From a virus (lineage: Duplodnaviria; Caudoviricetes): a stretch of 56,931 nt of DNA. The notes under the pieces were generated by a model. That model was not told where the DNA came from and ran no database searches. It saw only the letters and a program-made list of their open reading frames with translations. Made by a program: the position numbers and the translations under genes. Positions 1,002 to 39,185 of this stretch are shown one piece after another. The DNA is taken from the IMG/VR virus record IMGVR_UViG_3300030012_002328, positions 1 through 56,931 of that record. One strand, given 5' to 3'. Each line of letters begins with the position of its first letter. Position 1 is the first letter of the stretch.

Positions 1002-1023
1002 AGAAAATCCTAAAAAATAACTA

Positions 1024-1061
1024 CTTGACATGAGATAGCATGGTCTATATACCTAGTCAAG
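1024..1061. promoter_or_regulatory. Overlapping divergent sigma70-like promoters between SNF2 helicase and replication operon
   Basis: TTGACA-17-TATACC on +; TTGACT-17-TATCTC on -. Confidence 0.55.
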
Positions 1062-1096
1062 TCTCTCCTAGAGATGATGTTTATTTTTGAAAAGAC

Positions 1097-1165
1097 GTAG
1101 CGGGGCGGTTTTCTTGGATGGTTAGCTGCCCCGTTACACCCAAAGCCGACGGGCTATAAACGGGA
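1097..1165 (+). promoter_or_regulatory. Structured 5' leader of the replication operon
   Basis: 14-bp stem GTAGCGGGGCGGTT/AGCTGCCCCGTTAC with G-U pairs only on +, followed by a small CCC..GCC-GACG-GGC..GGG element. Confidence 0.5.
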
Positions 1166-1191
1166 ACGTAGAAACTAGAAGGAGTGTCCAA

Positions 1192-1749
1192 ATGAGTGGA
1201 CTTTTCGATGAGATGGAAGCAGACGCGTCAGCGTTTGATGAAGTCAAAACAGAGGCCGGGGCCAAGTTGTCCGACCTCATTCGAGAGGCGCAGCGTCAGT
1301 CTGCGCTTCAAGAAGAACATGAGCAAGGTGCTAAAGATGCCAAGAAAGAGTATCACCGCATCACTCGTGAACTCATCCCCGCAGAAATGGAAGCAATGGG
1401 CTTAGAGCGTGTAGACGTTGATGGTAACTCCATCAGTCTGCAGCAGTTTGTCTATGCGTCCATTCCGGCGACTCGCAAAGAGGAAGCGTATAACTTCCTG
1501 CGGTCTATCGGCGAGGACGATATTATCAAGAACGAAGTAGTCGTGCAGTTTGGCCGAGGCCAAGACAATCAGGCTGGTGCGTTCTTTGATGATTGCAGCC
1601 AACAGGGTCTTGACCCTGCCCAAAAACAATCGATTCATCCGATGACATTGAAGGGCTGGCTGAAAACCCGCATGGAGCAGGGACAGGAAACTGACCTTGA
1701 CCTGTTCGGTGCGTATGTTGGAACCGAAGCGAAGATCAAAAGGAAGTAA
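1192..1749 (+). CDS. Conserved phage replication-module protein, function unknown
   Basis: 185 aa, AAGGAG RBS, N-terminal coiled coil, first gene of the operon. Confidence 0.8.
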   Translation: MSGLFDEMEADASAFDEVKTEAGAKLSDLIREAQRQSALQEEHEQGAKDAKKEYHRITRELIPAEMEAMGLERVDVDGNSISLQQFVYASIPATRKEEAYNFLRSIGEDDIIKNEVVVQFGRGQDNQAGAFFDDCSQQGLDPAQKQSIHPMTLKGWLKTRMEQGQETDLDLFGAYVGTEAKIKRK

Positions 1750-1755
1750 ATCGCT

Positions 1756-2559
1756 ATGAGTGAAACTAAAGAAGTAGCTGTCAAGAAAACGACAGACGTT
1801 GCGTTGCCAGCCGAGATGCTGGGCGCATTCATTGAAGACGCAGGCGCAGGTACTGAAAACATCGGTGCCGATGACATGAAGATTCCGTTCATTCGGGTCA
1901 TTCAATCTGTGTCGCCACAACTGAAGAAGAAGGACGGTGAGCATATCGCAGGCGCAGAGGCTGGTGATGTGTTCAACACAGTCACGAAACAACTTTGGAA
2001 AGGCGAAGACGGGGTCTTGGTTATCCCGTGTGGCTATACAAAGAAGTTCTTGGAGTTCGGCCCGTACGACCAAGGCGGTGGGTTCAAAGGTGAGCTTGCT
2101 CCCAATGACCCGCGTGTCCTCGGTGCGACCCGTGTCGGCAACAAGGATATCTTGGACAACGGTAACGAGTTGGTAACGTCCGCTCAACACTATGTCCAGA
2201 TTCAAGACCCGAGTAACGGGACTTGGCAAACTGCAATCATTGACATGAAGTCGACGAACCTGAAGATTTCGCGTCAGTGGAATACGATGATTTCCATGCA
2301 GCAGGCGCAAGCAAACGGCAAGACCTTCAAGGTTCCGAGCTTCGGTTGCATTTGGAAGTTAGAGACCGATGAGTTCTCGAATGACATGGGTAGCTGGAAC
2401 GCTTGGAAGATTACCGGACGTGAATGCTACGTAGAGGATTCAGAGCTCTACAACTCTTGTAAAGAGTTCAGCAAGATGGTGAGTGAAGGAGAGGTTGCTG
2501 CAGCACCCGATCCGGATTTGGAAGAAGTTAGTACTGACACCAGCGACGCACCGTTCTAA
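1756..2559 (+). CDS. Putative single-stranded DNA-binding/annealing protein
   Basis: 267 aa acidic protein upstream of primase; ends in acidic SSB-type tail EEVSTDTSDAPF. Confidence 0.6.
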   Translation: MSETKEVAVKKTTDVALPAEMLGAFIEDAGAGTENIGADDMKIPFIRVIQSVSPQLKKKDGEHIAGAEAGDVFNTVTKQLWKGEDGVLVIPCGYTKKFLEFGPYDQGGGFKGELAPNDPRVLGATRVGNKDILDNGNELVTSAQHYVQIQDPSNGTWQTAIIDMKSTNLKISRQWNTMISMQQAQANGKTFKVPSFGCIWKLETDEFSNDMGSWNAWKITGRECYVEDSELYNSCKEFSKMVSEGEVAAAPDPDLEEVSTDTSDAPF

Positions 2560-2565
2560 GCTGCC

Positions 2566-2607
2566 GGAGGTGGGAATCTTGGAGAAGGAGTTCCCACCTC
2601 CATTTTT
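2566..2607 (+). terminator. Intrinsic terminator/attenuator between SSB-like gene and primase
   Basis: Stem GGAGGTGGGAA/TTCCCACCTCC followed by ATTTTT. Confidence 0.65.
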
Positions 2608-2615
2608 ACAAGAGG

Positions 2616-4154
2616 TTGCCAATGAATACCATCAAAAGGTTCATGGCTGCTTTCGAAGGATTTGAGACAGCACATGGACAGACTACGATTAAAGGAACAC
2701 GCAAAAACGGCAAAGAAGAAGCTGATAGCCGTGTTATCCGAACTCCGCTCGACGAAACCCACATCAAGAAACATTTCGACGGGACTGTCGGGGCCGGAGC
2801 TATTCCGATTAATTCCACAAATAACTGCCACTTTGGTTGTATCGATGTGGATGTTTACCCACTTGATCATGCTGCTCTTGTTGGGCAGTGCGATGCTCTT
2901 GATTGCCCTGCCATTGTATGCCGCAGCAAGAGTGGTGGAGCGCACATCTATTTCTTCATTGAAGGGTGGATATCTGCAGCGGATATGCGAGACAAGCTAT
3001 CCGAAATTGCTGCTGCTTTGGGCTACGGTTCGGCAGAAATTTTTCCGAAACAAGAAAAACTTTTAGTCGAACGCGGCGACGTAGGGAACTTTATCAACCT
3101 GCCGTACTTCGGTGGTGATCGCACACTGCGTCCTGCATACAACAGCAAGGCGCAAGAACTGTCGCTCGAAGAGTTTCTCGACTTTGTCGATGAGCAGACC
3201 ATTCGGCCTGAGAAGTTTATGGGGCTACAGCTAGGCTCCGAGACAGACTTCCTGCCGGAGTGTCCGCCGTGCTTGGTCAAGCTGACCAACATGGGTATCG
3301 GCGAAGGTAATCGTAACGAGACCATGTTCAATATCGGCGTAATGTATCAGAAGATGGACCCCGACAACTGGCAGGGTTTGCTCGAGCAGCACAACGTGCA
3401 GTACGTCAACCCGCCGCTGCCTGCGTCTGAGATTGTGCAGATACAAGACCAGCTAACCAAGAAGGAGTATCAGTACGGCTGCAAGAAGTCGCCGCTGAAG
3501 GATTACTGTAACAAGTCACTGTGCCTTACAAAGGCGTACGGCGTTGGTAACGGCTCTCTCAGGTCGCTTGAAATCACAGGCATGAGTGTTGTGCTATCGG
3601 AACCACGCGTGTGGTTCGTAGATATCGGCGGCGAACGCTTAGAGTTGACCAGCGAGGACGTGCAAATGCAGTTGAAGTTTGGTCGCGCTTGTCTCGAACA
3701 GCTTGGCTGGCTACCGCCGCGTATGAAAGAGTCTGACTGGACTACTATCATGAACAACGCGCTACAGGACTGCATGAAGATTGAAGTGCCGCCGGAACTG
3801 ACAAACAAAGGCCAGTTCCAAGACTTGCTTGAGTCTTTCTGTTCTGGTCGCGTACAGGCAATGTCTCCGGAAGAACTTATTTTGGGCAAGCCTTACGTCG
3901 AAGAGGGCAAGGTCTTCTTCAAGCTGGATGCTTTGATGGACTTTCTTAAAACCAAAAACTTCAGTCAGTATACACGCGGTCAGGTGCAGGAGCGTCTAAA
4001 AGAACTTAACAACGGCAATTCCTCAAGTGTGACCAAGTCATTTCGAGACAGGGCAGGCAAGACTAAAGCGGTTCGTGTTTGGTCGGTGCCGGAGTTCGAT
4101 CCCGACATGGATATACCCGCTGTTGATATCAAAGGTGAGGAGGTGCCTTTCTAA
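2616..4154 (+). CDS. AEP-superfamily primase(-polymerase) with PriCT-like domain
   Basis: Motif I CIDVD, motif II RSKSGGAHIYF, PriCT-like CPPCL..GEGNRNETMF. Confidence 0.8.
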   Translation: MPMNTIKRFMAAFEGFETAHGQTTIKGTRKNGKEEADSRVIRTPLDETHIKKHFDGTVGAGAIPINSTNNCHFGCIDVDVYPLDHAALVGQCDALDCPAIVCRSKSGGAHIYFFIEGWISAADMRDKLSEIAAALGYGSAEIFPKQEKLLVERGDVGNFINLPYFGGDRTLRPAYNSKAQELSLEEFLDFVDEQTIRPEKFMGLQLGSETDFLPECPPCLVKLTNMGIGEGNRNETMFNIGVMYQKMDPDNWQGLLEQHNVQYVNPPLPASEIVQIQDQLTKKEYQYGCKKSPLKDYCNKSLCLTKAYGVGNGSLRSLEITGMSVVLSEPRVWFVDIGGERLELTSEDVQMQLKFGRACLEQLGWLPPRMKESDWTTIMNNALQDCMKIEVPPELTNKGQFQDLLESFCSGRVQAMSPEELILGKPYVEEGKVFFKLDALMDFLKTKNFSQYTRGQVQERLKELNNGNSSSVTKSFRDRAGKTKAVRVWSVPEFDPDMDIPAVDIKGEEVPF

Positions 4155-5701
4155 TGACAACGACTTCTTATTTCGGTCCGCCGGGCACCGGTAAAACTTT
4201 TACGTTGATGAACATAGTTAGTAACTATTTAGAGCAGGGCAGTGAGCCGGAGCGTATTGGCTTTGTGTCGTTTAGTAAAAAGGCAACAGAAGAAGCACGT
4301 AATCGCGCTGCGTCTGAGTTGAACCTCGACTACAAACGGATGCCGTACTTTCGTACGCTGCACTCATTGGCGTTTCGTCAACTTAGTCTGAAGATTGAAG
4401 ACGTTATGCGTGGTGCAGACTATCGTCGTCTCGAAGAAATGATAGGCATGGAGTTTCTTTCTACCTCGTCGATGTCTCTTAACGACGGCGAGTTCTTCCG
4501 GATGGGCAGCAAGGGCGATATGTATCTTGGTGTCTACAACATGGCGCGGGTGCGTGGCATACCTGTCGAGCAGCAGTTTCATGAGACCGCCAACTTTAGT
4601 TTGCGGCTGAACGAACTTGAGCACATTGTTCGAAGCTACGAAGACTACAAGCAAGCGGCGGAGAAAATTGACTTCACGGATATGATCCGTCTGTTCATCG
4701 AGAACGGTGAGGCCCCGAAGCTGGACGCGCTAATCGTCGATGAGGCGCAAGACCTTGTTCCGTTGCAGTGGCAGATGGTGGACAAGCTTGCACAAAACGC
4801 TAGTGATGTTTTCTACGCCGGAGACGATGACCAAGCCATCTACGAATGGATGGGTGTTAATCCCAAAGACTTCATCGAGCGCAGCATGGACACAGACAAC
4901 CAGTTCACGCTCGGTCAAAGCTTTAGGGTTCCGCAAGAGGTGCATAAGTTTGCTACCAGCATTACGGACTCGATGCACACTCGTATTGATAAGGCTTACG
5001 AGCCGCGTGAAGAACCGGGATCCGTGTCGTATCATTATGATATCGATGAGCTTGATTTACAGAATGGTGAGTGGATGATCCTGTGCCGGACAAACTATAT
5101 CGCCAATAAGCTGGCGGGTCAGTTGAAAACAATGGGTCATTTGTTCTGGCGGACTGGTAACGGCTGGAGCGTATCAAGTCGCACACTTAACGCTGTGCGG
5201 AACTGGACTAAGCTGACACGTGGTGAGTCTCTGGGCTTATCCGAGTTTCAAGAACTTTGGACTATGCTGAAGATTGACCGGTACAAGAAACGTGCAGGCA
5301 ATAAGAAGATTAAAGAAGCTCCGAAGGGCGACATGCTTGAAGACGCACGTGACACATTCGACATGAACTTTGTTACGGATATTCTGGGCGAGGATGTACG
5401 AGAAAAAATCTGGTACGAGATTTTAGATGTTCAAGCAAAGGAACGTGTGTATATTACTAGTGTATTGGAATCTGGTGAAAAATTTGACGACGACAATCCC
5501 CGTATTGTTCTGTCTACTATTCATAAGGCAAAGGGCGGCGAGGCCGACAACGTCGCTTTGTTTCTTCAATCATCGAAAGCTTGTTGCACGATGGGTGACC
5601 CAGATTGCGAGAGGCGTGTGTTCTATGTGGGGGCAACACGCGCCAAACAAAACTTGCATATTATTGAGTCCCGCGATGCACGATGGAGCTTTCGTATATG
5701 A
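4154..5701 (+). CDS. UvrD/Rep-like SF1 DNA helicase
   Basis: GPPGTGKT, DEAQD, GDDDQAIY, STIHKAKGGEAD, YVGATRAK. Confidence 0.93.
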   Translation: MTTTSYFGPPGTGKTFTLMNIVSNYLEQGSEPERIGFVSFSKKATEEARNRAASELNLDYKRMPYFRTLHSLAFRQLSLKIEDVMRGADYRRLEEMIGMEFLSTSSMSLNDGEFFRMGSKGDMYLGVYNMARVRGIPVEQQFHETANFSLRLNELEHIVRSYEDYKQAAEKIDFTDMIRLFIENGEAPKLDALIVDEAQDLVPLQWQMVDKLAQNASDVFYAGDDDQAIYEWMGVNPKDFIERSMDTDNQFTLGQSFRVPQEVHKFATSITDSMHTRIDKAYEPREEPGSVSYHYDIDELDLQNGEWMILCRTNYIANKLAGQLKTMGHLFWRTGNGWSVSSRTLNAVRNWTKLTRGESLGLSEFQELWTMLKIDRYKKRAGNKKIKEAPKGDMLEDARDTFDMNFVTDILGEDVREKIWYEILDVQAKERVYITSVLESGEKFDDDNPRIVLSTIHKAKGGEADNVALFLQSSKACCTMGDPDCERRVFYVGATRAKQNLHIIESRDARWSFRI

Positions 5702-7656
5702 AGAAGACTGACCAACTCTCTTTCGCAGCCCGTATGACTTCGGCATTACCGGATGAAGATATCCGTGAAGTGGCTACAGTTTCTCTTGATCAAGACTGGA
5801 CACCACCGTCTATCTTCCCCGATCACTACAAAGACGCGGACATAATCTCGATTGACTTGGAGACCCGAGATCCGAGTCTCATGCAGCTTGGACCAGGTTG
5901 GTGCCGAGACGATGGATACATTGTGGGCTTCGCTGTAGCGTTCAATGACTTCGTTGGATACTACCCTATCCGGCACGAGGGCGGTGGTAACCTGCCTGAG
6001 AAAGCAGTTATGAGCTACATTAAAGACATGATGGAGTGCGATGTGCCGAAGGTCATGCACAACGCTCAATATGACTTGGGCTGGCTGCGGTGGGCAGGAA
6101 TAAAGGTAAACGGTAAAGTATACGACACAATGACTGCCGCTGCAGTATTGAATGAAAACCGAAGGTGGTACAATCTAGATGGTTTGGCTCGTGAATATTT
6201 GTCTGAGAGCAAGAATGAGCGGCTTCTCCGGTTGGCTGCGGCTGACTACGGCGTGGATCCCAAAGCAGATATGTGGCGGCTACCGTCTCGGTTTGTTGGA
6301 ACATATGCCGAACAGGACGCTGCGGTTACACGCCGCCTGTGGGAGAGGCTCAAGACTGATATACTTAAAGAAGAAGTCTCCAACATATTCGAACTCGAGA
6401 CAGCCCTGACTCCGATGCTCTTGGAGATGCGCTGGCGCGGTGTACGGGTCGACGAAGAAGGCGCGGAGCGAGCACAGGGACAGCTTGAGGCTCGTGAGAA
6501 AGAAATACTGAAAGCAATCAAGGACGAGACAGGTGTTTGGGTAGAGCCGTGGAATGCCAACTCTATCGCCACTGTGTTCGACAGTCTTGATCTTAGCTAC
6601 CCACGCACAGAAAAAACTGACGCACCGTCATTTACTAAACAGTTCTTGGCGGCACACGAACACCCGACAGCCAAGCAAATTGTGCGGCTGCGCGAACTGA
6701 ACAAAGCGAGTACAACCTTTATTAGAAACATTCTAAAGTTCTCTAATAACGGCAGGATACACGCAGAATTTCATCCTCTTCGTTCAGATGAGGGTGGAAC
6801 GGTCACGGGGCGGTTTAGCTCCTCTAACCCCAACTTACAGCAAATACCGGCTCGTGACCCAGAAATTAAGTCGCTTATTCGTGGTTTGTTCCTACCGGAA
6901 GAAGGTGAGAAGTGGGGCAGCTTTGACTACGCGTCACAAGAACCTCGTTGGTTGGCACACTATTGTGCCTCCATCACTGGCGTACACCGTCACCCCAGTA
7001 TCGACGAAGTGGTAGAACGGTACAAAGCAGATAACGCGGACTTCCACCAGATGGTAGCTGACATGGCTGGCATCTCTCGTAAAGATGCCAAGACTGTGAA
7101 CTTGGGTATCATGTACGGTATGGGCGTGAATAAGATGGCTGGTGTCTTGGATACCACAGTGCAAGAGGCTAAAGAACTTTTGTCGGAGTATCACAACCGC
7201 GTTCCCTTCGTGAAGGGTCTGGCTACAATGGTGTCCAACCACGCCAATGAGTCTGGCATCATTCGCACAGTCAAAGGCCGTAAGTGTCGGTTCGATATGT
7301 GGGAGCCCAAGACGTTTGGTGTCCACAAGCCGCTGCCTTTGGAGCAAGCGCAAAAAGAATATGGTGGGCGTGGTTCTATCAAACGTGCGTTTACTTACAA
7401 GGCTTTGAATCGACTGATTCAAGGTTCGAGTGCCGATCAAACAAAGCAGGCTATGCTGGATTGTTATGACGCTGGGCATCTGCCCATGTTACAAGTGCAT
7501 GATGAACTGTGTTTCAGCATTGATGCAGACGAGCGCGGCAACCCTGATAAGAAACAAATCAAAGAGATTGCTGAGATTATGGAAAACTGTGTCGAGGCAA
7601 AAGTACCCTTCAAGGTTGACTGCGCGGTTGCAGACAACTGGGGGCAAGTAGACTAG
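5698..7656 (+). CDS. polA: Family A DNA polymerase with 3'-5' exonuclease (Leu762 type)
   Basis: ExoI DLET, ExoII HNAQYD, ExoIII YAEQD; motif A DYASQEPR, motif B RKDAKTVNLGIMYG, motif C VHDE. Start moved to the ATGA overlap with the helicase stop. Confidence 0.96.
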   Translation: MKKTDQLSFAARMTSALPDEDIREVATVSLDQDWTPPSIFPDHYKDADIISIDLETRDPSLMQLGPGWCRDDGYIVGFAVAFNDFVGYYPIRHEGGGNLPEKAVMSYIKDMMECDVPKVMHNAQYDLGWLRWAGIKVNGKVYDTMTAAAVLNENRRWYNLDGLAREYLSESKNERLLRLAAADYGVDPKADMWRLPSRFVGTYAEQDAAVTRRLWERLKTDILKEEVSNIFELETALTPMLLEMRWRGVRVDEEGAERAQGQLEAREKEILKAIKDETGVWVEPWNANSIATVFDSLDLSYPRTEKTDAPSFTKQFLAAHEHPTAKQIVRLRELNKASTTFIRNILKFSNNGRIHAEFHPLRSDEGGTVTGRFSSSNPNLQQIPARDPEIKSLIRGLFLPEEGEKWGSFDYASQEPRWLAHYCASITGVHRHPSIDEVVERYKADNADFHQMVADMAGISRKDAKTVNLGIMYGMGVNKMAGVLDTTVQEAKELLSEYHNRVPFVKGLATMVSNHANESGIIRTVKGRKCRFDMWEPKTFGVHKPLPLEQAQKEYGGRGSIKRAFTYKALNRLIQGSSADQTKQAMLDCYDAGHLPMLQVHDELCFSIDADERGNPDKKQIKEIAEIMENCVEAKVPFKVDCAVADNWGQVD

Positions 7657-7665
7657 GAGACTACA

Positions 7666-8103
7666 ATGGCTAAAGACCAAATCATTTATCATGTAGAAAA
7701 ATGTTACCTCTATCACTTGTTTGTCTACAAGCCGGTGCAGCCTTTCTACAAAGGCAATCAATCCAAAGATTTTCGTGTAATAATGGACCCGGTCAAGAAG
7801 TTCGAAGGCCACTATGAAGGTGGCGGCTCGGGATGCCAAGACGTTCCCGTAAGTCTAAACGCTCGATACTTTCGATACCCACTAGGGTTACGGACAGTGA
7901 CAGGGCATGGCATTGGTTTCGTGCCAGAGTATCCAGACTTCGAGATGCCTGTAAACTTCGTCGGTATCCGCCTGTTGTTTGGCTGGGAAATATTTGTAAG
8001 TCATACCTTCAACATCGCCCCAACGATTAGCGGTAAGCGAAAGTGGGGTATTCAAGTTACGTTGCACCGTATTCGAAAAGAAGTCATACCGGCTGCTGAA
8101 TGA
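7666..8103 (+). CDS. Hypothetical protein
   Basis: 145 aa, AGGAG RBS, coupled to the next gene. Confidence 0.7.
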   Translation: MAKDQIIYHVEKCYLYHLFVYKPVQPFYKGNQSKDFRVIMDPVKKFEGHYEGGGSGCQDVPVSLNARYFRYPLGLRTVTGHGIGFVPEYPDFEMPVNFVGIRLLFGWEIFVSHTFNIAPTISGKRKWGIQVTLHRIRKEVIPAAE

Positions 8104-8579
8104 TTATCATTGACGACTTCTTGCCTTCTCATTTAACAGGAACCATAGAGCCTGTTACGAAAGATATTCAATGGTGGGATGGGGTGACAAGAACAGAAGC
8201 CGCTCACGATGTTATAGCCTACTGTCGAGATTACTTTAACCTGAATGGTTTTTGCGGTTTTGAGTACTGGTACAATGTAACAACACCCGAGCCTCCGTAT
8301 CCTAATTGGCATAGAGACAAGGACGAAGGTAGCGAAGAAGTCATACTCGCTGACTGGGCTTGTATACTTTACCTGACACCCCATAACTTGTGGGGCGGGT
8401 TTTTAGAACTAGAGACAGCCGACATAACTAGGACAGAGGTAGAGCGTGTAGCTCCGCGTTTCAACAGATGCGTGATCCTAGATCCGGGTGTCTGGCACCG
8501 CGTCTCAAGGGTTTGGTCTGGAAAGCGTCACGCTTTCTTGATAAACGGCTGGGTGAACCCACCTACTGCAGCGGGTTAG
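8100..8579 (+). CDS. 2OG-Fe(II) oxygenase
   Basis: HxD (WHRD), GG-x-L, distal H (WHRV) and R (KRHAF). Confidence 0.8.
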   Translation: MIIIDDFLPSHLTGTIEPVTKDIQWWDGVTRTEAAHDVIAYCRDYFNLNGFCGFEYWYNVTTPEPPYPNWHRDKDEGSEEVILADWACILYLTPHNLWGGFLELETADITRTEVERVAPRFNRCVILDPGVWHRVSRVWSGKRHAFLINGWVNPPTAAG

Positions 8580-8970
8580 ACAGAGCGTCTAGCCCCTTCC
8601 AGATATCATCAATTTCACGGTTGATTTTCTTGAAGCGACCACCAATGCCGTCCACTTTTTCTTTGAACTGTTGAACCAGTAAATCGTTCTCGACGGTTGT
8701 CTTCTCTACCTCGGCAATCCGGTCACGCAGATCGAGCAACTGCTTTTGGTTTTCCATAATCGTTTCGAGGTTCGTGCCGAGCACTGTTAGCTTTTCTGCT
8801 GTGTCACCATTGCCAGCGACTGCGGCCTCCACAGACTCGATCCGCCCGTAAAACTCCGCGACTGCCCATATACCGCCAGCTAGGGTAGTGCCGATAGACA
8901 ATACGATTGCAATCCATACGCCACGAAGCTTCGTGCCGCCGATTGTTAGTTCGGTTTCTTCTAGGCTCAT
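8563..8970 (-). CDS. Membrane-anchored coiled-coil protein
   Basis: N-terminal hydrophobic helix (VWIAIVLSIGTTLAGGIWAV) then heptad-rich region. Confidence 0.75.
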   Translation of the reverse strand: MSLEETELTIGGTKLRGVWIAIVLSIGTTLAGGIWAVAEFYGRIESVEAAVAGNGDTAEKLTVLGTNLETIMENQKQLLDLRDRIAEVEKTTVENDLLVQQFKEKVDGIGGRFKKINREIDDIWKGLDALSNPLQ

Positions 8971-9761
8971 TGATACATGTAGGCTTGCTGGTCGGCATAA
9001 ATTGCCTCACCCTCACCCAACACATCAGCAGCAGAAACATAGTCGCCAGTCAGGAAGTCATGAAACGATATGTTGCCAATGTTGGTTGTCCATTCAACAC
9101 TCAGTATGTCGTTGGTAGCGGAATAGGAGATAGATGCCTCGGCCATAGACTGACCATAATCTTGTGCGTGTTCGTCTGAGATACTGGTCAGTGCTTCGTT
9201 CTTCGACGCAGCCAAGAATGCGCCAGCGTCACGGGCATTGACCGCAATCTCTTCTAGCGACTGGTTATATTCGGCCACGGTCTCTTGTTTGATTTCTACA
9301 TCGTTGACTTCGATGAACTCTTGGACTGCTATTTGATCCTCAACACTGTTCGTCTCTTGTGCGACTTCGGCTACCTCGGCAACCTCCTCTACCATGCTGA
9401 GTTGAACACTCGCGACAACAAAGTTGTCTACAGCTTCGGAAACCTTGACCATTGACTCTTCATACTTCTCTTCAAGAGCCATTTGAGTTGTGTAATACAA
9501 TGCGTTACGTACACCTTCCAACGCGTCTTGGTACGCAGCAATGTCGCCATCGTTGATTATGTATTGCTCATCGTCCACAGCATTATAGTCGATGATGCCA
9601 CCAACGCTGGCGTAGTGTTCTGCGCCATAGACTGCGTAACGGCCTTGCTCAAGCTTCGCTGCAATCGTCCGGCTGGCGTTGACTAGGTTATCAATCGTCG
9701 TCTCGGAGTGTGCTGCGGAAACGCTCAGAAATGCTGAGATTAGAATCGCTGCCTTCTTCAT
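8967..9761 (-). CDS. Exported acidic protein with signal peptide
   Basis: Start reassigned to MKKAAILISAFLSVSAAHS (AAGGA RBS); 264 aa. Confidence 0.75.
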   Translation of the reverse strand: MKKAAILISAFLSVSAAHSETTIDNLVNASRTIAAKLEQGRYAVYGAEHYASVGGIIDYNAVDDEQYIINDGDIAAYQDALEGVRNALYYTTQMALEEKYEESMVKVSEAVDNFVVASVQLSMVEEVAEVAEVAQETNSVEDQIAVQEFIEVNDVEIKQETVAEYNQSLEEIAVNARDAGAFLAASKNEALTSISDEHAQDYGQSMAEASISYSATNDILSVEWTTNIGNISFHDFLTGDYVSAADVLGEGEAIYADQQAYMYQ

Positions 9762-25271: not shown

Positions 25272-25820
25272 TTATACCAGAGCAGGACCGGACATCCAAG
25301 CAACCAGTGTTTGCCTTTTTCCTTTAGTTACAGGAGTAACTCTATGCTCGAGCCAAGACGGAAAAGCTATAACAGTGCCGCGTTGACGAAGGGCTGGGAC
25401 ATCTTCGATATTGCCCCCATAATGACGAAACTGGAAGTCTCCTCCCTCATAGTCGTCTGGGTCAGTAAGCTGAACAATAATACTGACCTTACGCATTTCA
25501 GATTCAAGCTTAACCGTGTCCATATGCCATTCGTAGTACTGCTCTTTGGTGTATTCAGTAAACTGAATTGCTGAAATACAGTCTATTTGCATCTTCCAAG
25601 CAGATTGATTAGCTTGATGCCCAAAACCAGATATTGCGTTTCTTATAAAGTTATCACTTATCCAACGAACACTTGAGTCACGTTGCTCCTCAATTAAGTC
25701 TCCTTCCCCTACAACTCCTTTTTCAGGTTCGATGTTTTGAGCAAGCGAGACTATATAATCGCACGTTTCGTCTGAAAGTTCTTTTTCCCAAGCCCAAAAT
25801 AAAGGTTGAACCGGTATCAA
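25272..25820 (-). CDS. 2OG-Fe(II) oxygenase, prolyl-4-hydroxylase-like
   Basis: WHMD, RKVS, YEGGDF, FPSWLEHRVTPVTKGKR. Confidence 0.9.
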   Translation of the reverse strand: MIPVQPLFWAWEKELSDETCDYIVSLAQNIEPEKGVVGEGDLIEEQRDSSVRWISDNFIRNAISGFGHQANQSAWKMQIDCISAIQFTEYTKEQYYEWHMDTVKLESEMRKVSIIVQLTDPDDYEGGDFQFRHYGGNIEDVPALRQRGTVIAFPSWLEHRVTPVTKGKRQTLVAWMSGPALV

Positions 25821-26512
25821 GAGTCGGGCTTCCAGACGCGAACAATACGAAGACCGACATCGTTATGGTTGGTAATGACGGTGTCTGAGGTTATATGAGT
25901 AGGTGTATCGGCTGCGATAACGTCATCGTCGGAGGTGACTACATTTTCCGTGATTGTATATAGCGTGTTGTCGCTTTTAGGCTCTAGCGTAACAGTCCCG
26001 TGAGCGGGTAGTTCTCTAAACTCTTTTACCCAATCGCCTTTCGGACCGCCGCTTGTAATAAAACAATACATCTTCGCACCAATAGGCAAGCTGAGTTTCG
26101 AGTGCTCGTTTCTAAAAGACCACTTTTGGAACGGGAACTCTCTATATTCTGTTATGTCAAAATCCTTGCCATGTGTATCAAGCTTTAAGACATTTCCGAA
26201 TCTACGAAACCTTGGGTTCGCCCACCCATACTCGGACTTCATGTATTCCATGAAACCTTCTATATCTTGTTCAGTGTGCCTATCGTCTAAATCCCACTCA
26301 AGCTCGTTAGCACCTTTGGCGATGAAGTTACTGTCATAGGACTTAATAAGATACGGGCGATCAGGGTGGATTTGACCCGTCCCCTTCATCATATCCGTTG
26401 TCTTTTCACGCTCTAGATAAGCGTTGTGCTCATCCACAACTACTAAACTAAACGCTACTTCGTTTAGGTATAGCTTATGTTTCTCGAACTTGAGGTTGTT
26501 GTTAATCAGCAT
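25817..26512 (-). CDS. Hypothetical protein
   Basis: 231 aa, overlapping neighbours in the operon. Confidence 0.7.
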   Translation of the reverse strand: MLINNNLKFEKHKLYLNEVAFSLVVVDEHNAYLEREKTTDMMKGTGQIHPDRPYLIKSYDSNFIAKGANELEWDLDDRHTEQDIEGFMEYMKSEYGWANPRFRRFGNVLKLDTHGKDFDITEYREFPFQKWSFRNEHSKLSLPIGAKMYCFITSGGPKGDWVKEFRELPAHGTVTLEPKSDNTLYTITENVVTSDDDVIAADTPTHITSDTVITNHNDVGLRIVRVWKPDS

Positions 26513-26843
26513 TCACTGCATCCGATGCGACAGCAGCAATAAAATCATCTGGGTCTAGAAGCCCTGACTCATCACCACCCGGATTTTGCTGCAAGGTATC
26601 GGTAGTGCCAACCAAGTCTCTGCCAAAACGTTTTACGGTCTTGACTACCGGCTTTATTACTTCTCGGATTGCTTTTTGAATAGCGTCTTTTGAGGCAACA
26701 ACATCAACAGTTTCTCCGTCGTCTTCGATGACAGCGGGAACAATAATCCGGTTTTCTTGGTCTTCATGAGTATAAACAACCACATACTCGTCGGTTTCGT
26801 CGTCAAAATCTATAACACGATACTCTGTCATTTTTTCACCCAC
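26502..26843 (-). CDS. Hypothetical acidic protein
   Basis: 113 aa ORF in the operon. Confidence 0.65.
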   Translation of the reverse strand: MGEKMTEYRVIDFDDETDEYVVVYTHEDQENRIIVPAVIEDDGETVDVVASKDAIQKAIREVIKPVVKTVKRFGRDLVGTTDTLQQNPGGDESGLLDPDDFIAAVASDAVNAD

Positions 26844-27517
26844 ATTGTGTCTCGATACAAACTGTTTTTGCTACCGCGCTTGCGCCGTGTCAGATCCAGC
26901 TTGTCTAGCTCCTTTTGATTCATGGCACGGATTTCTGCTTTTTTGCTGAAGCCGCGCTTGAACGGGATTACCTGAACAATAGGCTCTCCACGCGGTATCA
27001 TTATACTGCCTTCCGTTGGTATTAGGAAGCCGGGGAAGTTGATGTACTCAAAATATTTGTCTGTGTCTACAATGCCGGAAATAGCTTCGAAGTATTTTAG
27101 ATCACGGTTTACAGGGGGAACAAACATGCACGACCAGCCCGGAGGGGTGGTTATCTGCCAGTAGTTGATGAACTTTAGTGGTGGCTTGGGTATTTGTGAG
27201 TGACCAACTATTTGAGCATGACTGTGTTCTTCAAATACGGTTTCAGGAAAATCTGATTGCCACGAAACGTCTGCGCCATCATTTGTGATAGTCAAATAAA
27301 TATCTGCGGGGGCACCAATTAACCACCCCGTTTGCAGGATATCAATGAACGGCGGACATCGTTTTATTGTCCTATCTTTCGGGTTGTCGTTTACAAAAGG
27401 CTTTAATCTTTTGAACCATTCCGGCATCACTGTCCTTGCGGGAACAGGATCGGGAATAATGTCTTTTAAGTGAGGATAGGTTGTGAAGGTAATCTTCGGG
27501 TCTCTACGAAATATCAT
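26828..27517 (-). CDS. Conserved phage protein (DUF6065-like), paralogue of 38436..39185
   Basis: PEWFK, TIKRCPPFID, GIVDTD, RGEPIVQVIPFKR. Family name recalled, not searched. Confidence 0.6.
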   Translation of the reverse strand: MIFRRDPKITFTTYPHLKDIIPDPVPARTVMPEWFKRLKPFVNDNPKDRTIKRCPPFIDILQTGWLIGAPADIYLTITNDGADVSWQSDFPETVFEEHSHAQIVGHSQIPKPPLKFINYWQITTPPGWSCMFVPPVNRDLKYFEAISGIVDTDKYFEYINFPGFLIPTEGSIMIPRGEPIVQVIPFKRGFSKKAEIRAMNQKELDKLDLTRRKRGSKNSLYRDTMWVKK

Positions 27518-29025
27518 TGCCTCGTCCAGTTTACTGTAACACCACCACCAGACCCAACAGTCACCGCTACAGCTTGTTGGGCTGTGTTAATTGTTACAAG
27601 ATTTGACACGTTAGCACCAGCACTTCCTGCGTTGCCAGCATTTCCGGGGTTTCCGTTGGCTCCAGCGGCACCGGGATTAGCATTACCGTTTGACCCAGCA
27701 TTACCTGCCGCGCCGGGGTTACCTGATCCGCCGGAACCGGCTCCGCTACCAGCATTACCTGCTGACCCCGCGTTTCCAGAGCTTCCGGAGTTCCCAGAGG
27801 TACCGTTGCTACCACTACCACCGCGACCACCGCGACCACCAGCCTTACCATTACGACTGCCATTGCCGAAGCCACCGTTACCGGCAGGGCCAAAGGGGTT
27901 ACTACCACCGGGAATGTCTGGTGAGCCTATGTTTCCGGTTGTTGCATTCGGGTAGCTTTGACCAGACGCACCACCATTACCGCCACCGCCAGCAGTTCCT
28001 CCGGCTCCTCCGGTTCCACCATTGCCGCCACTACCAGCGTTGCCAGCACCACCGGGGTTACCAGCGTTGCCAGCATTACCGGCTGCACCAGCATCACCGT
28101 TGTTCCCGGGGTTGCCGGGATTACCAGCATTAGCATTGCCCCCAGCACCACCAGCACCACCCGTTCCAGCCGCACCACCCGTTCCAGCCGCACCACCAGA
28201 AGCTGTTACAAAATTACCGAAGGTTGTATCAACACCAACATTGCCGCTAGTACCAGCATTCCCCGAGTTGCCAGAAGCTCCTTGGTTTCCGGCACTTCCT
28301 GAGTTACCCGAGCCACCAGCAGTTGCACCTGTTCCAGCGTTTCCTGCATTACCGGCTGCACCAGCACCGCCGGGGTTTCCTGCACCGCCGTTGTTTCCGC
28401 TACCAGAATTACCGTTACTACCAGCATTACCTGCGGTACCTGCACTACCCGAGCCACCAGCATTTGGTGTTCTATTAAACCCGCTGTTCTCGGCGTTACC
28501 GGCAGCACCCCCAGCACCGCCAGGAGGAACACCGCTAGGTGACGGCGCGGTTGATCCAGCATTACCCGGGTTGCCATTAAAGGCGGTAGTTCCGGGTTGA
28601 GGCAAAACAACACTATTGTTTTTAGTGCAAAAAAAACCACCAATACCATTGTTACCAGCACCCCCAGCACCGCCGCCGCCGCCGCCACCACCACTAGCTT
28701 TGTTACCAGCCGCGCCCGGATTACCAGAGTTACCCGTACCGGCAGAACCACCATTACCTGCCGCACCATTGTTTCCAGGGTTGCCGGGGTTACCAGCATT
28801 GCCAGCACCACCCGCAGACCCAGCAGTACCCGCTGTTCCAGCGTTACCAGTCGCACCTTGGTTACCTGGGTTTCCGCCATTGCCTGGCGTACCTGTGCCG
28901 CCTGTAGCGTTTACAGTTACTTTGTGGACACCCGGAGGAAGATTAAACGTACCGCTTGAGTTAAACGTCGCACTACCACCGGGGTAAAGCGGGTCATACC
29001 GTGTTGCGGTACCTACGGAAGGCAT
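27514..29025 (-). CDS. Gly-X-Y repeat (collagen-like/polyglycine II) fibre protein
   Basis: 503 aa dominated by GNA/GNP/GAA/GSA/GTA triplets, with short non-repetitive ends. Confidence 0.85.
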   Translation of the reverse strand: MPSVGTATRYDPLYPGGSATFNSSGTFNLPPGVHKVTVNATGGTGTPGNGGNPGNQGATGNAGTAGTAGSAGGAGNAGNPGNPGNNGAAGNGGSAGTGNSGNPGAAGNKASGGGGGGGGAGGAGNNGIGGFFCTKNNSVVLPQPGTTAFNGNPGNAGSTAPSPSGVPPGGAGGAAGNAENSGFNRTPNAGGSGSAGTAGNAGSNGNSGSGNNGGAGNPGGAGAAGNAGNAGTGATAGGSGNSGSAGNQGASGNSGNAGTSGNVGVDTTFGNFVTASGGAAGTGGAAGTGGAGGAGGNANAGNPGNPGNNGDAGAAGNAGNAGNPGGAGNAGSGGNGGTGGAGGTAGGGGNGGASGQSYPNATTGNIGSPDIPGGSNPFGPAGNGGFGNGSRNGKAGGRGGRGGSGSNGTSGNSGSSGNAGSAGNAGSGAGSGGSGNPGAAGNAGSNGNANPGAAGANGNPGNAGNAGSAGANVSNLVTINTAQQAVAVTVGSGGGVTVNWTRQ

Positions 29026-29351
29026 TAACTTACCTGTTGAGCAAGCGTTGTGAAATCAGAGGGGAGATCACTGCTTTGAGTAGCATACGAACCTTTTACA
29101 TACTTGTCGGAACCATCATCGGCTTCCCATATCACTCGGTCATATGTTAAAACCGGTGAGTTAGTGAAGATAACTGGGTTTCCCTCACCGTCTTCAAACC
29201 AAGTAGAAATAGCACGAAGATCGTCTATCGGGTCTGTGTAATCCAGATTAGTGTATGCGATACCGTTCTGATCAAGCCACTGACGAAACTCAGCAGATGC
29301 AGCCTGACCTACCTTTGCATGGAGATGGATATTTTCATACCTGACTGTCAT
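29025..29351 (-). CDS. Glutaredoxin-fold-like protein lacking CxxC
   Basis: WLDQNGIAYTNLD and a later SP motif; no Cys in the protein. Confidence 0.4.
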   Translation of the reverse strand: MTVRYENIHLHAKVGQAASAEFRQWLDQNGIAYTNLDYTDPIDDLRAISTWFEDGEGNPVIFTNSPVLTYDRVIWEADDGSDKYVKGSYATQSSDLPSDFTTLAQQVS

Positions 29352-29352
29352 C

Positions 29353-30069
29353 TTATGCCTCGTAGAAAGATAAGCTTACGTAAATATCGGTTACACCCTT
29401 AATCAGCAGTGCGGTGTAAATCGTGGTTTTGTTGGCCGTCGAGTTTACCGCTGGCTGCGTCGAAGAGTTGTTATACACTATACTATAACCGCTCGGTGCT
29501 GCCAATGTGAACGTCCGACCACCAGTGCCGTCTTGAACAGCAATAACTGTTACTGCTCGGATGGACCCCGTAATCAGGTCGTCGGTGGTAGGAAGCGTGA
29601 CTGTTGTATTACCAGTTAGTGTGTACCTAGCATTCAACTGAATATCAGGAACAGTGAGCGAACCTGAAGCAGAACTAACAGAAAAAAGATTTTCTTCCGT
29701 ACCGTGGAACTGGAGGTCTTTCGTGACAAGACCATCACCGTCGAAAACACCGCTTTCATCTTTGTATAAAGCACGTTCGGCAGGCTGAGAACAAAATACT
29801 GTTTTTACTCCAGCACCCCAGTTAACTGCATTGCCTCCATTGGAGCTTTCTAAAATAGTGTCCCGAGATAACGTTGTGCCAGATGACGTGTATGTGCCGA
29901 TACCAACTTCAAAGTCAACATCATCTGTAATAACGTAATAAGTCTTGTTTCCGTTACCAATAGCAGCAAAAGATTGAAACCCAGTTTCTGCACCGGCAAG
30001 CGTGACCGTGCCAGTACCTGTCGTGGTAGTGGTCTCTTTTACACGGTCTTTTACGACAGGAACTACCAT
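29353..30069 (-). CDS. Tail fibre anchor/structural protein
   Basis: DRVKETTTTTGTG..GFQSF N-terminus; QDGTGGRT C-terminal domain. Confidence 0.7.
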   Translation of the reverse strand: MVVPVVKDRVKETTTTTGTGTVTLAGAETGFQSFAAIGNGNKTYYVITDDVDFEVGIGTYTSSGTTLSRDTILESSNGGNAVNWGAGVKTVFCSQPAERALYKDESGVFDGDGLVTKDLQFHGTEENLFSVSSASGSLTVPDIQLNARYTLTGNTTVTLPTTDDLITGSIRAVTVIAVQDGTGGRTFTLAAPSGYSIVYNNSSTQPAVNSTANKTTIYTALLIKGVTDIYVSLSFYEA

Positions 30070-36902: not shown

Positions 36903-37316
36903 CTATAGCACTACGTCTTCAGGGTTCATAATAGTGGCGATAACTTCGTCATCATTGATAATGCGAACCTCCCCGCCGTCCAACTTGAAGCGCGAACCAG
37001 CGTATCGTCCGATACAAATCCAGTCGCCTTCCTTGCACCAAGGCTCACAAGCATCGCCGAACTTATCGGGGTCCTTGTACGCCAGAGGTCCTAGTTTGAC
37101 CACGTAAGCAACAACTGTTGCCAGTGCTTCGCGGTCTTTGGTCTCGTCAGGAATGTAAACACCCCCGTGAGTTTTTTCTCGGCCTTTGTACGGCATTACA
37201 AGAAGTCGCCAGCCAGTAGGCTGCGGCACACGGGCCATTGCGTCTTCTTCGGCAGCACGTTGAGCCGCTTCTTCCTGAACCTTTACGTAGTCAGGCAGAA
37301 TCAATCCACTACTCAT
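36903..37316 (-). CDS. groES: Co-chaperonin GroES-like protein
   Basis: PTGWRLLV..KTHGGVYIPD..KEGDW..RYAG..IINDDEVIA. Start reassigned to MSSGL. Confidence 0.88.
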   Translation of the reverse strand: MSSGLILPDYVKVQEEAAQRAAEEDAMARVPQPTGWRLLVMPYKGREKTHGGVYIPDETKDREALATVVAYVVKLGPLAYKDPDKFGDACEPWCKEGDWICIGRYAGSRFKLDGGEVRIINDDEVIATIMNPEDVVL

Positions 37317-37509
37317 TGTCTTCCTCGTCATATTTTCTAAGCAGAGTCGAAATCTCTTCGACAGCAAACGAAAGACCCTGGATCTCGCCCACCATCGCCC
37401 TGTACTGTTCCATGTCAGAAACAGAACCGCTTGTAACCGCTACCGATATATCATCGATGCGGGTCTCTAGATTGCGTTTATATTTGGATAGAAATTCTAG
37501 TATTCTCAA
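37309..37509 (-). CDS. Hypothetical protein
   Basis: 66 aa helical ORF; YRAMVGEIQGL. Confidence 0.65.
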   Translation of the reverse strand: MRILEFLSKYKRNLETRIDDISVAVTSGSVSDMEQYRAMVGEIQGLSFAVEEISTLLRKYDEEDNE

Positions 37510-38435: not shown

Positions 38436-39185
38436 CTACCGTTTTAGCTTTGTCTTGTGTTTTAGGTACTCTGCAGTCTTGTCAAATTCACGGCCAAAAG
38501 CTATGCGCCGCCAGTAAGCTTGGTCTTGTTCTACCTTTACCTCTATCTCGGGCAGTGTGTCGCTCAACGGCACGACATAGCAAAGGGGCTCACCACGCTT
38601 TATCATAAACTCTCGCTCATGGCCGAGCGGGGGCTTCTTTAACCAAAGATTGATGTTAAATGTTTGCTGTTTCTCTGCGTACGGTTCCCACGCACCCAAT
38701 GCTGCTTCCCAGTCGGGGTTCGGCGGCATGACCGGAACTATCATAATATCTAAGCCTTTTGTCCCCTCCAGCTTCCAATAGTCTGTAAGCTTCAGGTTGT
38801 CGTATTCTTCGAAGGCTCTGGGGTGCTGCTGATGACCATGATTATCAATACCGCCGCCATCCGGACCCCAGTAGTGAGGAACTTGCGCCAAGAAATTTCC
38901 GTCGGCGTAATACGTGACAGCGACATCTGTCCACGAAGGTATTAAGATTGTCCGTCGAAAGAAAAGACTAAAGGCGGGACAACGTCTGATTGTTCCCGAA
39001 GCTACATGCTTGTCGTTTTCAGCAAAATGCCGAGGCGTTGGTGGGAGCATACCTTCTACCCACTTGGGCATGTTCGAAAACCAAGAAGGCTTGTCTTGGG
39101 AAAGATATCTCGGAGCAATCTCAGGGCTAACCTCGAAGTTGTTCCTAAAAATCAACTTCGGTTTTTTCTTGCGCGAAAAAATCAC
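38436..39185 (-). CDS. Paralogue of 26828..27517 (DUF6065-like)
   Basis: PSWFS, TIRRCPAF, IKRGEPLCYVVP. Confidence 0.6.
   Translation of the reverse strand: MIFSRKKKPKLIFRNNFEVSPEIAPRYLSQDKPSWFSNMPKWVEGMLPPTPRHFAENDKHVASGTIRRCPAFSLFFRRTILIPSWTDVAVTYYADGNFLAQVPHYWGPDGGGIDNHGHQQHPRAFEEYDNLKLTDYWKLEGTKGLDIMIVPVMPPNPDWEAALGAWEPYAEKQQTFNINLWLKKPPLGHEREFMIKRGEPLCYVVPLSDTLPEIEVKVEQDQAYWRRIAFGREFDKTAEYLKHKTKLKR

Follow-up and report, generated by a model that had tools for sequence, protein, structure and literature searches.

Does a tailed phage carry the means to hydroxylate its own fibre? The question is raised by a cassette of six genes at positions 25272-29351 (minus strand) of the virus record IMGVR_UViG_3300030012_002328, where a gene for a 503-amino-acid (aa) Gly-X-Y protein is embedded in the late/tail operon together with genes for a 2-oxoglutarate- and Fe(II)-dependent (2OG-Fe(II)) oxygenase, a DUF6065 protein and three further proteins. 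The stretch analysed here, hereafter the window, spans the whole IMG/VR record (56,931 bases), for which completeness is given as 100%. The large terminase that it encodes shares 53-60% identity with its counterparts in Pelagibacter phages HTVC027P and HTVC023P, phage DSL-LC04 and 023Pt_psg01, which places the window phage, by this gene, among the marine podoviruses related to the HTVC023P-type pelagiphages. A preliminary description of the locus had proposed that the phage modifies and chaperones its own fibre. We find that the Gly-rich fibre gene and the gene for the prolyl 4-hydroxylase (P4H)-type oxygenase form a conserved pair, and that the link between fibre and hydroxylase is strong at the level of comparative genomics. 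Whether the fibre is also the substrate of the oxygenase we regard, from sequence comparison, as an evenly balanced proposition.

Conservation of the fibre and oxygenase gene pair

An enzyme-blind sample was obtained with a degenerate DNA pattern for the N-terminal motif of the fibre, which yielded 104 loci. The pattern was chosen because a scan with the single fibre protein gave only near relatives, and the alignments of the fibre and of the 108-aa cassette protein were too variable for seeding. The motif falls within an open reading frame (ORF), nearly always a Gly-rich one, in 103 of the 104 loci. Loci were retained if they contained a complete ORF with the motif no more than 60 residues from its start and at least 25% Gly, with at least 2 kb of sequence upstream and at least 2.5 kb downstream. 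The 40 eligible loci formed 32 clusters at 80% identity; the other 63 failed at least one of these criteria, the clearest exclusions being 24 loci without flanks and one locus without an ORF at the motif. A P4H-type oxygenase is encoded on the same strand, between -2.5 and +3.5 kb, in 30 of the 32 clusters, so that the co-occurrence across phages named in the preliminary description as a check on its reading is indeed seen. An oxygenase of the PF13759 type is present in 19 clusters, and DUF6065 in nine, all nine with an oxygenase; the gene for the 108-aa protein is likewise found in nine, immediately upstream of long Gly-X-Y members of the fibre family. Across 50,697 phage records, any relative of the oxygenase was detected in 361 and a relative of DUF6065 in 58.

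A second sample, seeded with DUF6065, comprised 90 loci (11 plus 79, the latter drawn from the best 80 of 595 confirmed matches, a set that leans towards the query), which formed 40 clusters at 70% identity. A P4H-like oxygenase gene lies on the same strand within 3 kb of the DUF6065 gene in 30 of these clusters and directly adjoins it in 22; when the PF13759 type is counted, 31 clusters have some 2OG oxygenase within 3 kb. A Gly-rich ORF (at least 25% Gly and at least 150 aa) is found within 1.5 kb in 24 clusters, oxygenase and Gly-rich genes occur together in 21, and 17 have the 108-aa gene as well. Among the ten clusters without a P4H-type enzyme, one (L048/L050) has a PF13759-type oxygenase and nine have none detectable by Pfam. 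The genes are arranged in three orders, namely fibre-DUF6065-oxygenase, fibre-oxygenase-108-DUF6065 and fibre-108-DUF6065-oxygenase, and the set remains clustered in relatives with as little as 35-48% identity and on contigs of 140-360 kb.

Within the window, all six ORFs are present on the minus strand of the tail operon as originally described. The successive junctions, from the 238-aa gene upstream of the cassette to the 190-aa gene downstream, measure +1, -1, -4, -16, -11, -4 and +6 nucleotides (nt); because the genes abut or overlap in this way, with gaps of -16 to +6 nt, 'translationally coupled' is a fair wording. The cassette is flanked by tail genes, with two genes for SU10-type adaptors on one side and, on the other, two tail-collar fibre genes and a gene for a 701-aa virion protein; proteins resembling fibre N-termini are also encoded among the flanking genes. 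A blastn search of the cassette region against the 50,697 phage records returned no match, and neither did tblastn searches with the 503-aa and 108-aa proteins, where the low-complexity filter may hide the fibre; no cultured phage with the exact cassette was found by these searches.

This setting also accommodates the notion that the enzymes modify another virion protein, such as the tail-collar fibres or the 238-aa, 190-aa or 237-aa fibre proteins. The oxygenase gene is followed at 1.3-3 kb by the two tail-collar genes, loci with DUF6065 and an oxygenase and no Gly-rich gene do exist, and tail-collar proteins as well as Gly-rich collagen-like peptides have been proposed as dioxygenase substrates in bacterial operons (PMC2938197). 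Nevertheless, it is the Gly-rich gene that stays beside the enzymes across rearrangements, whereas collar genes are inconsistently present in distant loci, and we consider a different virion target improbable.

The oxygenase and the fibre protein

The 182-aa oxygenase (25272..25820, minus strand) matches PF13640 at 55.4 bits (cut-off 27; E 1.3e-14). The P4H-type oxygenase family is defined by an H-x-D...H triad and a basic 2-oxoglutarate residue 10 positions after the distal His; in an alignment of 24 cassette oxygenases, the iron triad H99, D101 and H159 and the residue R169 at +10 are invariant. With all catalytic residues in place, the original 2OG-Fe(II) oxygenase call holds. When the family profile was compared with PDB, the best matches were PKHD-type hydroxylases of unknown substrate (8e-15), which cover the C-terminal half only. 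Near full-length matches were obtained to proven prolyl 4-hydroxylases, those of a chlorovirus (5c5t, E 9.3e-10, residues 14-158) and of Bacillus (3itq and 5hv0, E 1.4e-8, residues 7-181), followed by the Chlamydomonas enzyme (2jig, 1.5e-7) and human C-P4H alpha-2 (7zsc, 5.3e-4). The profile also matches 4iw3 at 1e-8, an entry listed there as an uncharacterised protein. The PDB relatives with a named, known function are prolyl 4-hydroxylases, and judged by residues and profile the 182-aa protein is an intact P4H-type enzyme. In a phylogenetic tree, the cassette enzymes fall into two clades, with weak support values of 0.33-0.86. The titles and abstract openings retrieved for PiuC/PKHD concern iron uptake and antibiotic resistance, and none of them names a substrate.

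A second PF13640 oxygenase gene (8100-8579, plus strand; 159 aa, 36.8 bits) is located in the replication module, distant from the fibre genes and directly after the genes for the DNA polymerase and a 145-aa protein; this enzyme and the cassette enzyme may have different targets.

The 503-aa protein (27514..29025, minus strand), the proposed substrate, contains 34% Gly, 16% Ala, 15% Asn and 6% Pro. Runs of Gly-X-Y span 4-19 triplets, with many interruptions and frame shifts; inside the runs, Asn is the commonest residue at X (43 occurrences) and Pro is found 11 times at Y. The 'many' Gly-Asn-Pro (GNP) triplets with Pro at Y noted initially are present and number 11. X-Pro-Gly sites occur as well, and the protein holds 18 Pro-Gly dipeptides. 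The Pfam Collagen profile (PF01391; cut-off 27.2 bits) is not reached by the window protein (21.9 bits) and is exceeded by longer relatives at loci L028 (74.8 bits) and L303 (33.5 bits). A PDB sequence search with the 503-aa protein retrieved animal collagens only (best E 2.4e-7).

Members of the fibre family range from 357 to 1323 aa, and in all of them both terminal segments and a middle island are conserved. In the window protein, conserved strands at residues ~11-50 are followed by a first Gly-X-Y half with a non-repeat tip at ~133-189, the middle island at 263-276, a second Gly-X-Y half with its tip at ~358-392, and conserved strands at ~455-503. The two Gly-rich halves are nearly equal in length in each relative, although they vary across relatives from 127 to 632 residues per half; for the 18 of 23 members in which the island could be called automatically, Pearson r is 0.99 and the ratios of half lengths are 0.91-1.36. 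The members left out because of an ambiguous island are L015, L011, L048, L050 and L066; in L015, L048 and L050, the island lies near the middle when judged by eye. Non-repeat islands further divide each half into equal arms in several members, as in L046, with 245, 262, 246 and 268 residues. In three near relatives, conservation is highest at the termini and lowest at the two tips; in L001, the termini are 98% and 94% conserved compared with 61% and 71% for the tips. The co-variation of the halves, together with the conserved ends and island, suggests a fibre with two out-and-back Gly-X-Y arms on a small base and with variable tips. The arms could form either a polyglycine-II lattice or triple helices between subunits: the out-and-back layout argues against one linear helix and is compatible with triple helices built from the equivalent arms of three subunits.

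An AlphaFold2 (AF2) model built from 17 relatives has a mean predicted local distance difference test (pLDDT) score of 50.8 and is confident only at residues ~11-50, 255-290 and 455-503, all of which are beta strands. In a wide structural search, these three stretches align together onto single jelly-roll domains, with HutD at Z 7.0 and many TNF/C1q domains at Z 5-6. That the strand blocks may form one small TNF-like/jelly-roll beta-sandwich base is a lead, not a result. Of the initial reading as a Gly-X-Y fibre, the Gly-X-Y runs and the fibre character stand, whereas a simple linear collagen appears unlikely in view of the AF2 strands, the fold search and the half lengths. The fibre character is backed by the position in the tail operon, the tentative base fold, the variable tips and the co-varying halves, and a tip protein with a long, folded-back stem is a likelier description of the 503-aa protein than a plain collagen.

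This design recalls the fibre of cyanophage Pam3, in which the strands of a TNF-like domain extend into glycine-rich loops with variable distal tips, and which has been likened to gp38 of Salmonella phage S16 and to the glycine-rich domain of ALK/LTK and is served by a separate trimeric chaperone (PMC9608196). The window fibre would share with Pam3 gp24 and gp25 a sandwich base, Gly-rich out-and-back loops, host-binding tips and a small assembly helper. The Pam3 structure 7ypx aligns with the confident part of the window model at Z 6.5 (root mean square deviation 2.2 A over 82 residues, 26% identity), and the glycine-rich domain of ALK (7nx3) at Z 5.6. In contrast to the six short loops of gp24, the window fibre has two excursions of ~190-220 residues with strict Gly-X-Y, and its 108-aa neighbour is unrelated to the chaperone gp25. 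These comparisons, in which the fold match is only middling, suggest for the 503-aa protein a kinship with Pam3 gp24 and similar proteins of the fibre tip, from which it would differ by its long stem.

A link through the glycine-rich-domain family PF21722 was also sought. The 503-aa protein does not match PF21722 at E up to 0.01, and hhalign of the fibre family with eight PF21722-type proteins gave a probability of 0.9% over 20 columns, confined to the N-terminal motif. The DNA pattern for that motif also recovers classical PF21722 proteins, at L274 (77 bits) and L320 (89 bits), where the motif sits at the start of the PF21722 match. A phmmer search of PDB with the L320 member returned nothing, and a sequence link from PF21722 to Pam3 gp24 was not obtained. 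The named groups among the 361 oxygenase-matching records include no Pseudanabaena phage, the Pam3 genome itself being outside that search.

DUF6065 and the small cassette proteins

The 229-aa protein (26828..27517, minus strand) matches DUF6065 (PF19541) just above the cut-off (27.0 versus 26.6 bits) and phrog_7084 at 1.2e-51, and most of its 120 listed homologues carry PF19541, in agreement with its initial labelling as DUF6065-like. A literature search found no published function for DUF6065. The AF2 model, built from 47 homologues, has a pLDDT of 92.8 and a predicted template modelling score (pTM) of 0.85. Compared with 48,161 chains, it yielded dUTPases or dCTP deaminases in 20 of the 22 top rows (Z 10.0-5.8, alignments of 95-129 residues), with the next unrelated row at Z 3.5, and Foldseek agrees. 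This modelling evidence assigns a dUTPase-like fold to DUF6065; a cupin or JmjC hydroxylase, also considered for this protein, was dropped after the fold search.

The dUTPase-like fold brings in the alternative that DUF6065, as a dUTPase/dCTP-deaminase-like enzyme, and the oxygenase, through base oxidation, act on nucleotides or DNA. The Z score of 10 favours this, as do the haloarchaeal viruses, in which DUF6065 lies at the border of the replication and tail modules and adjoins thymidylate synthase, DNA polymerase or ribonucleotide reductase, and the location of the second PF13640 gene of the window behind the DNA polymerase gene. The DUF6065 'GIVDTD.Y' stretch, we presume, resembles dUTPase motif III. 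However, the DUF6065 profile (47 members) has no PDB matches at E up to 10 and so provides no sequence tie to dUTPases, and the 229-aa protein has no match to Pfam dUTPase; the family has invariant residues of its own, including a Cys and a His (Cys54, His98, Gln102, Lys115, Trp120 and Tyr221); and the cassette oxygenase is P4H-type by profile. In bacteria, 79 loci, mostly of Rhizobiales, have DUF6065 without a cassette-type oxygenase, a Gly-rich gene or a relative of the 108-aa gene. Among seven such neighbourhoods scanned (L180, L220, L250 and L219 among them), the chromosomal DUF6065 gene, of Rhizobiales and relatives, adjoins an S8 subtilase gene in three and an extracytoplasmic function (ECF) sigma factor gene in two, rather than nucleotide genes. 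We judge action on nucleotides or DNA very improbable; the contexts of DUF6065 point to proteins rather than nucleotides as its target.

A second DUF6065/phrog_7084 paralogue (38436-39185, minus strand; 249 aa, E 8.4e-17), 25% identical to the cassette copy, is encoded between the portal gene and the capsid gene of the head module; the invariant residues of the family are retained in it, and no oxygenase gene is adjacent. At L041 (7202-9326), L065, L081, L089 and L091, two tandem DUF6065 genes are found beside an oxygenase gene, and the family has therefore been duplicated within cassettes. L175, the 80th of the bacterial loci and a 61-kb contig binned into a metagenome-assembled genome of Gammaproteobacteria, has the same cassette with a 91% identical DUF6065; it probably belongs to this phage lineage and is either mis-binned or a hint at the host group.

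The first gene of the cassette encodes the 108-aa protein (29025..29351, minus strand), which the preliminary description called a Cys-less glutaredoxin-like protein. The lack of Cys is plain. The protein has no match in Pfam, PHROG or NCBIfam, and a search of the protein Atlas with it and with the 231-aa protein gave no usable match. In the alignment of its family (25 members), W51 and P66 are invariant, and the pattern of strand, helix, strand and an invariant Pro before the third strand is that of a typical thioredoxin fold. The family profile matches the ArsC-family thioredoxin-fold structure 3gkx (E 0.008) and, less well, two glutaredoxins (E 0.64 and 0.89), and one of the 25 members matches Pfam Glutaredoxin at E 0.11. 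Neither a CxxC nor a CxxS redox motif is present in the window protein; some relatives retain one Cys where the redox motif would lie. A glutaredoxin-like character is plausible and weakly supported.

The comparison initially drawn with P4H and its thioredoxin-fold partner subunit finds no support. The 108-aa gene is found in 20 of the 40 DUF6065-seeded clusters and, as given above, in nine of the 32 motif-seeded ones; wherever the flanking sequence is at hand, its neighbour is a long Gly-rich gene. It is missing from loci that keep DUF6065 and the oxygenase without a long-stem Gly-rich gene. It therefore tracks the fibre, not the enzyme, contrary to what an enzyme subunit would lead one to expect, and is a candidate fibre chaperone or adaptor.

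Upstream of the cassette, the gene for a 238-aa fibre-module protein (29353..30069, minus strand) usually precedes it: relatives occupy this position in 21 of the 40 DUF6065-seeded clusters according to an iterated search. The protein has no Pfam or PHROG match, and over 106 aa its N-terminal part shares 50% identity with a 'tail fiber domain containing protein' encoded by phage 023Pt_psg01. The remaining two cassette genes, for an acidic 113-aa protein (26502..26843) and a 231-aa protein (25817..26512), both on the minus strand, had been recorded as unknowns, rightly so in that neither has a family match in Pfam, PHROG or NCBIfam. Relatives of the 113-aa protein occur at 12 loci, all of the lineage of the window. 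The 231-aa protein is very divergent, with 18-23% identity between relatives; R35, H49 and C150 are invariant among eight aligned members, and its family profile retrieved from PDB only obscurin (E 0.08), nothing meaningful. These two genes, confined to close relatives (12 loci), are accessory and not core parts of the cassette. The interval from the DUF6065 gene to the oxygenase gene varies in content: in the near relatives L007 (4684-5517, plus strand), L003-L005 and L014, an extra gene for a 277-aa protein with a sub-threshold match to Coq4 (18 bits, E 0.0019) lies between the 231-aa and oxygenase genes.

Proposed fibre maturation and related systems

In the model that we infer, with the fibre as substrate, proline as target and roles for DUF6065 and the 108-aa protein, the six genes would constitute a fibre maturation cassette within the tail operon. 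The 503-aa protein would be a tail-fibre or receptor-binding protein whose strands at both termini and in the middle build a small TNF-like/jelly-roll base, from which two Gly-X-Y excursions of equal length would run to the variable tips and back as a polyglycine-II or collagen-like stalk. The 182-aa enzyme, presumably active as a P4H-type oxygenase and produced together with the fibre late in infection, would most likely hydroxylate Pro in the X-Pro-Gly sites of the fibre, mainly Gly-Asn-Pro-Gly, before or during folding, and this would be likely to stiffen or stabilise the extended stalk or to alter its surface. DUF6065 could be a second tailoring enzyme or a trimeric assembly factor, and the 108-aa protein would more likely help the fibre to fold or dock. 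A general scheme for aquatic tailed phages, in which a P4H acts on X-Pro-Gly sites of a new class of very long, folded-back Gly-X-Y fibres and DUF6065 then contributes nucleotide-dependent decoration of the new hydroxyl or some other maturation step, is a tentative extension that we hold with some doubt.

Proline as the target of the P4H-type enzyme is consistent with a thin contrast in Pro-Gly density. The two motif-seeded clusters without a P4H-type enzyme are the classical PF21722 proteins of L274 and L320; they have the lowest densities, 0.6 and 0.3 Pro-Gly per 100 aa, respectively, compared with 1.2-5.9 in the other 30 clusters. L274 belongs to a complete 104.5-kb genome with no PF13640 match anywhere, and L320 is a fragment. 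In L048 and L050, Gly-X-Y members that are poor in Pro (4 Pro-Gly in 432 aa), PF13759 oxygenases replace the P4H type. The Mann-Whitney p value for density versus presence of the enzyme is 0.011, uncorrected.

Several observations weigh against the fibre as the substrate. The Pro-Gly contrast depends on two to four lineages, uncorrected for relatedness, and short PF21722-like members with 3-4 Pro-Gly still have the enzyme. Stabilisation of the window fibre by hydroxyproline would be modest, because it has only 18 Pro-Gly and, of its 30 prolines, roughly every second one falls within a non-repeat tip. The fibre model is unreliable over its Gly-rich 60%, the fold match of the base is middling (Z no higher than 7) and tied with unrelated jelly rolls, and Foldseek finds nothing with the fibre model (best E 4.5). 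The second PF13640 gene, the head-module DUF6065 and the solitary haloarchaeal and bacterial DUF6065 genes imply that these proteins also work outside fibre cassettes. Of 80 oxygenase-seeded loci, DUF6065 lies no more than ~5 kb away in only 4, and a Gly-rich gene is present in about a tenth, so the enzyme family is far wider than the cassette. Finally, gene neighbourhood is evidence of a functional link, not of a substrate.

Under the usual 'auxiliary metabolic gene' (AMG) interpretation, the oxygenase, with DUF6065, would target a non-fibre substrate such as a host protein or a small molecule, and the variable late region would merely gather accessory genes. Bacterial P4H-type enzymes hydroxylate translation factors, and the PDB relative 4iw3 is one that we take to be the EF-Tu prolyl hydroxylase. 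Most oxygenase-seeded loci are tandem oxygenases without DUF6065 or a Gly-rich gene. Wittmers 2022 lists eight 2OG oxygenase types of HTVC023P-type phages as AMGs (PMC9599517), and Heyerhoff 2022 has called viral use of P4H 'cryptic' (PMC9301287). On the other hand, mere accumulation in a variable region is hard to square with an enzyme gene on the same strand within a few kb in 30 of the 32 enzyme-blind fibre clusters, with a set that persists in three gene orders and at identities as low as 35%, with gene overlaps of 1-16 nt inside a tail operon, or with two distinct oxygenase clades serving the cassette, weakly supported as these clades are. A host protein or small molecule as the substrate seems unlikely to us, and a fibre-directed hydroxylase is the reading that we pursue below.

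The cultured pelagiphages HTVC023P and 023Pt_psg01 have, in the same slot, three tandem genes for proteins of 443-491 aa with 23-27% Gly, of which the one scanned, HTVC023P gp60, is a PF21722 protein, followed by two small genes and three oxygenase genes. The Gly-rich and oxygenase genes are at 593-4931 and 6032-7915 in HTVC023P (L174) and at 2084-6291 and 7789-9707 in 023Pt_psg01 (L173). One pelagiphage oxygenase gene is annotated 'ferrochelatase', and may be a mislabelled 2OG oxygenase because the window oxygenase, too, matches a PHROG of that name (phrog_3531, E 1.4e-6). Wittmers 2022 treats the HTVC023P-type oxygenases as AMGs tied to 'ferrochelatases', and its main text, as distinct from its supplements, contains no occurrence of 'glycine', 'collagen' or 'tail fiber' (PMC9599517).

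Several known P4H systems resemble the cassette in part. The P4H of chlorovirus PBCV-1 is thought to act on Pro-rich repeat proteins of the virus itself, rather than on Gly-Asn-Pro. PBCV-1 infects eukaryotic algae, and its enzyme has no DUF6065 or thioredoxin-like partner and no linkage to fibre genes. In Bacillus, which has the collagen-type P4H matched by the cassette oxygenase, BclA-like proteins combine, as the window fibre may, a collagen-like stalk with a TNF/C1q-like domain, and BclA C-terminal domains appear in the Foldseek list of the fibre at insignificant E values of 6-8. The BclA stalk is linear and N-terminal to the head, unlike the window fibre, in which both chain ends would meet in the base; we know of no established substrate link between the Bacillus P4H and BclA. 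Animal collagen P4H, an alpha2beta2 enzyme with protein disulfide isomerase (PDI) as the beta subunit, targets X-Pro-Gly and belongs to the same catalytic family as the cassette enzyme, which we take to be a single domain without the peptide-substrate-binding domain of the animal P4H. The thioredoxin-fold protein of the animal system, PDI, has a possible counterpart in the weakly thioredoxin-like 108-aa protein encoded nearby in the cassette, yet the latter differs from PDI in being Cys-less and in following the fibre rather than the enzyme.

Cyanophage dioxygenase arrays of the Syn9 type share with the cassette a dUTPase-fold protein, to be compared with DUF6065 and its invariant Cys54. Iyer et al. 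2010 put forward Gly-rich collagen-like proteins as bacterial dioxygenase substrates and, for the Syn9-type phage arrays, metabolite synthesis rather than fibre modification (PMC2938197). By analogy, the cassette might make or tailor a small peptide or secondary metabolite. Unlike the Syn9 arrays, it contains a single oxygenase, lacks both halogenase and sulfotransferase, and has as its conserved neighbour a defined partner from the fibre family, 357-1323 aa in length, and a Pfam/PHROG scan of the window revealed no peptide synthetase, halogenase or transporter. A metabolite product is, in our estimation, extremely improbable, and we return to hydroxylation of the fibre.

Giant viruses encode collagen-modifying enzymes. 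Already known, too, are the chlorovirus P4H, the predictions of Iyer et al. (PMC2938197) and the glycine-rich fibre design of Pam3, S16 and ALK (PMC9608196). In a literature search that covered mainly titles and abstract openings, no published link of tailed-phage P4H-like genes to this Gly-rich fibre family was found, and titles and abstract openings likewise yielded no report of hydroxyproline in a tailed-phage virion or of phage fibre hydroxylation. P4H-like 2OG oxygenases are among the most abundant AMGs reported in marine viromes; if fibre hydroxylation is correct, many of these marine viral 'P4H/2OG oxygenase AMGs' would be fibre-maturation enzymes rather than metabolic genes, and tailed phages would join animals, some bacteria and giant or algal viruses, for which collagen-type hydroxylation has been reported so far. 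The widespread DUF6065 family, with its dUTPase-like fold, would gain a biological setting, and the fibre, with its base and two equal out-and-back Gly-X-Y arms, would represent a new structural form. Modification of a receptor-binding fibre could affect host range and particle stability.

Outside the tail operon, the head module of the window encodes a 154-aa protein (36903-37367, minus strand) with a Cpn10 (GroES-like co-chaperonin) domain (E 4.3e-11).

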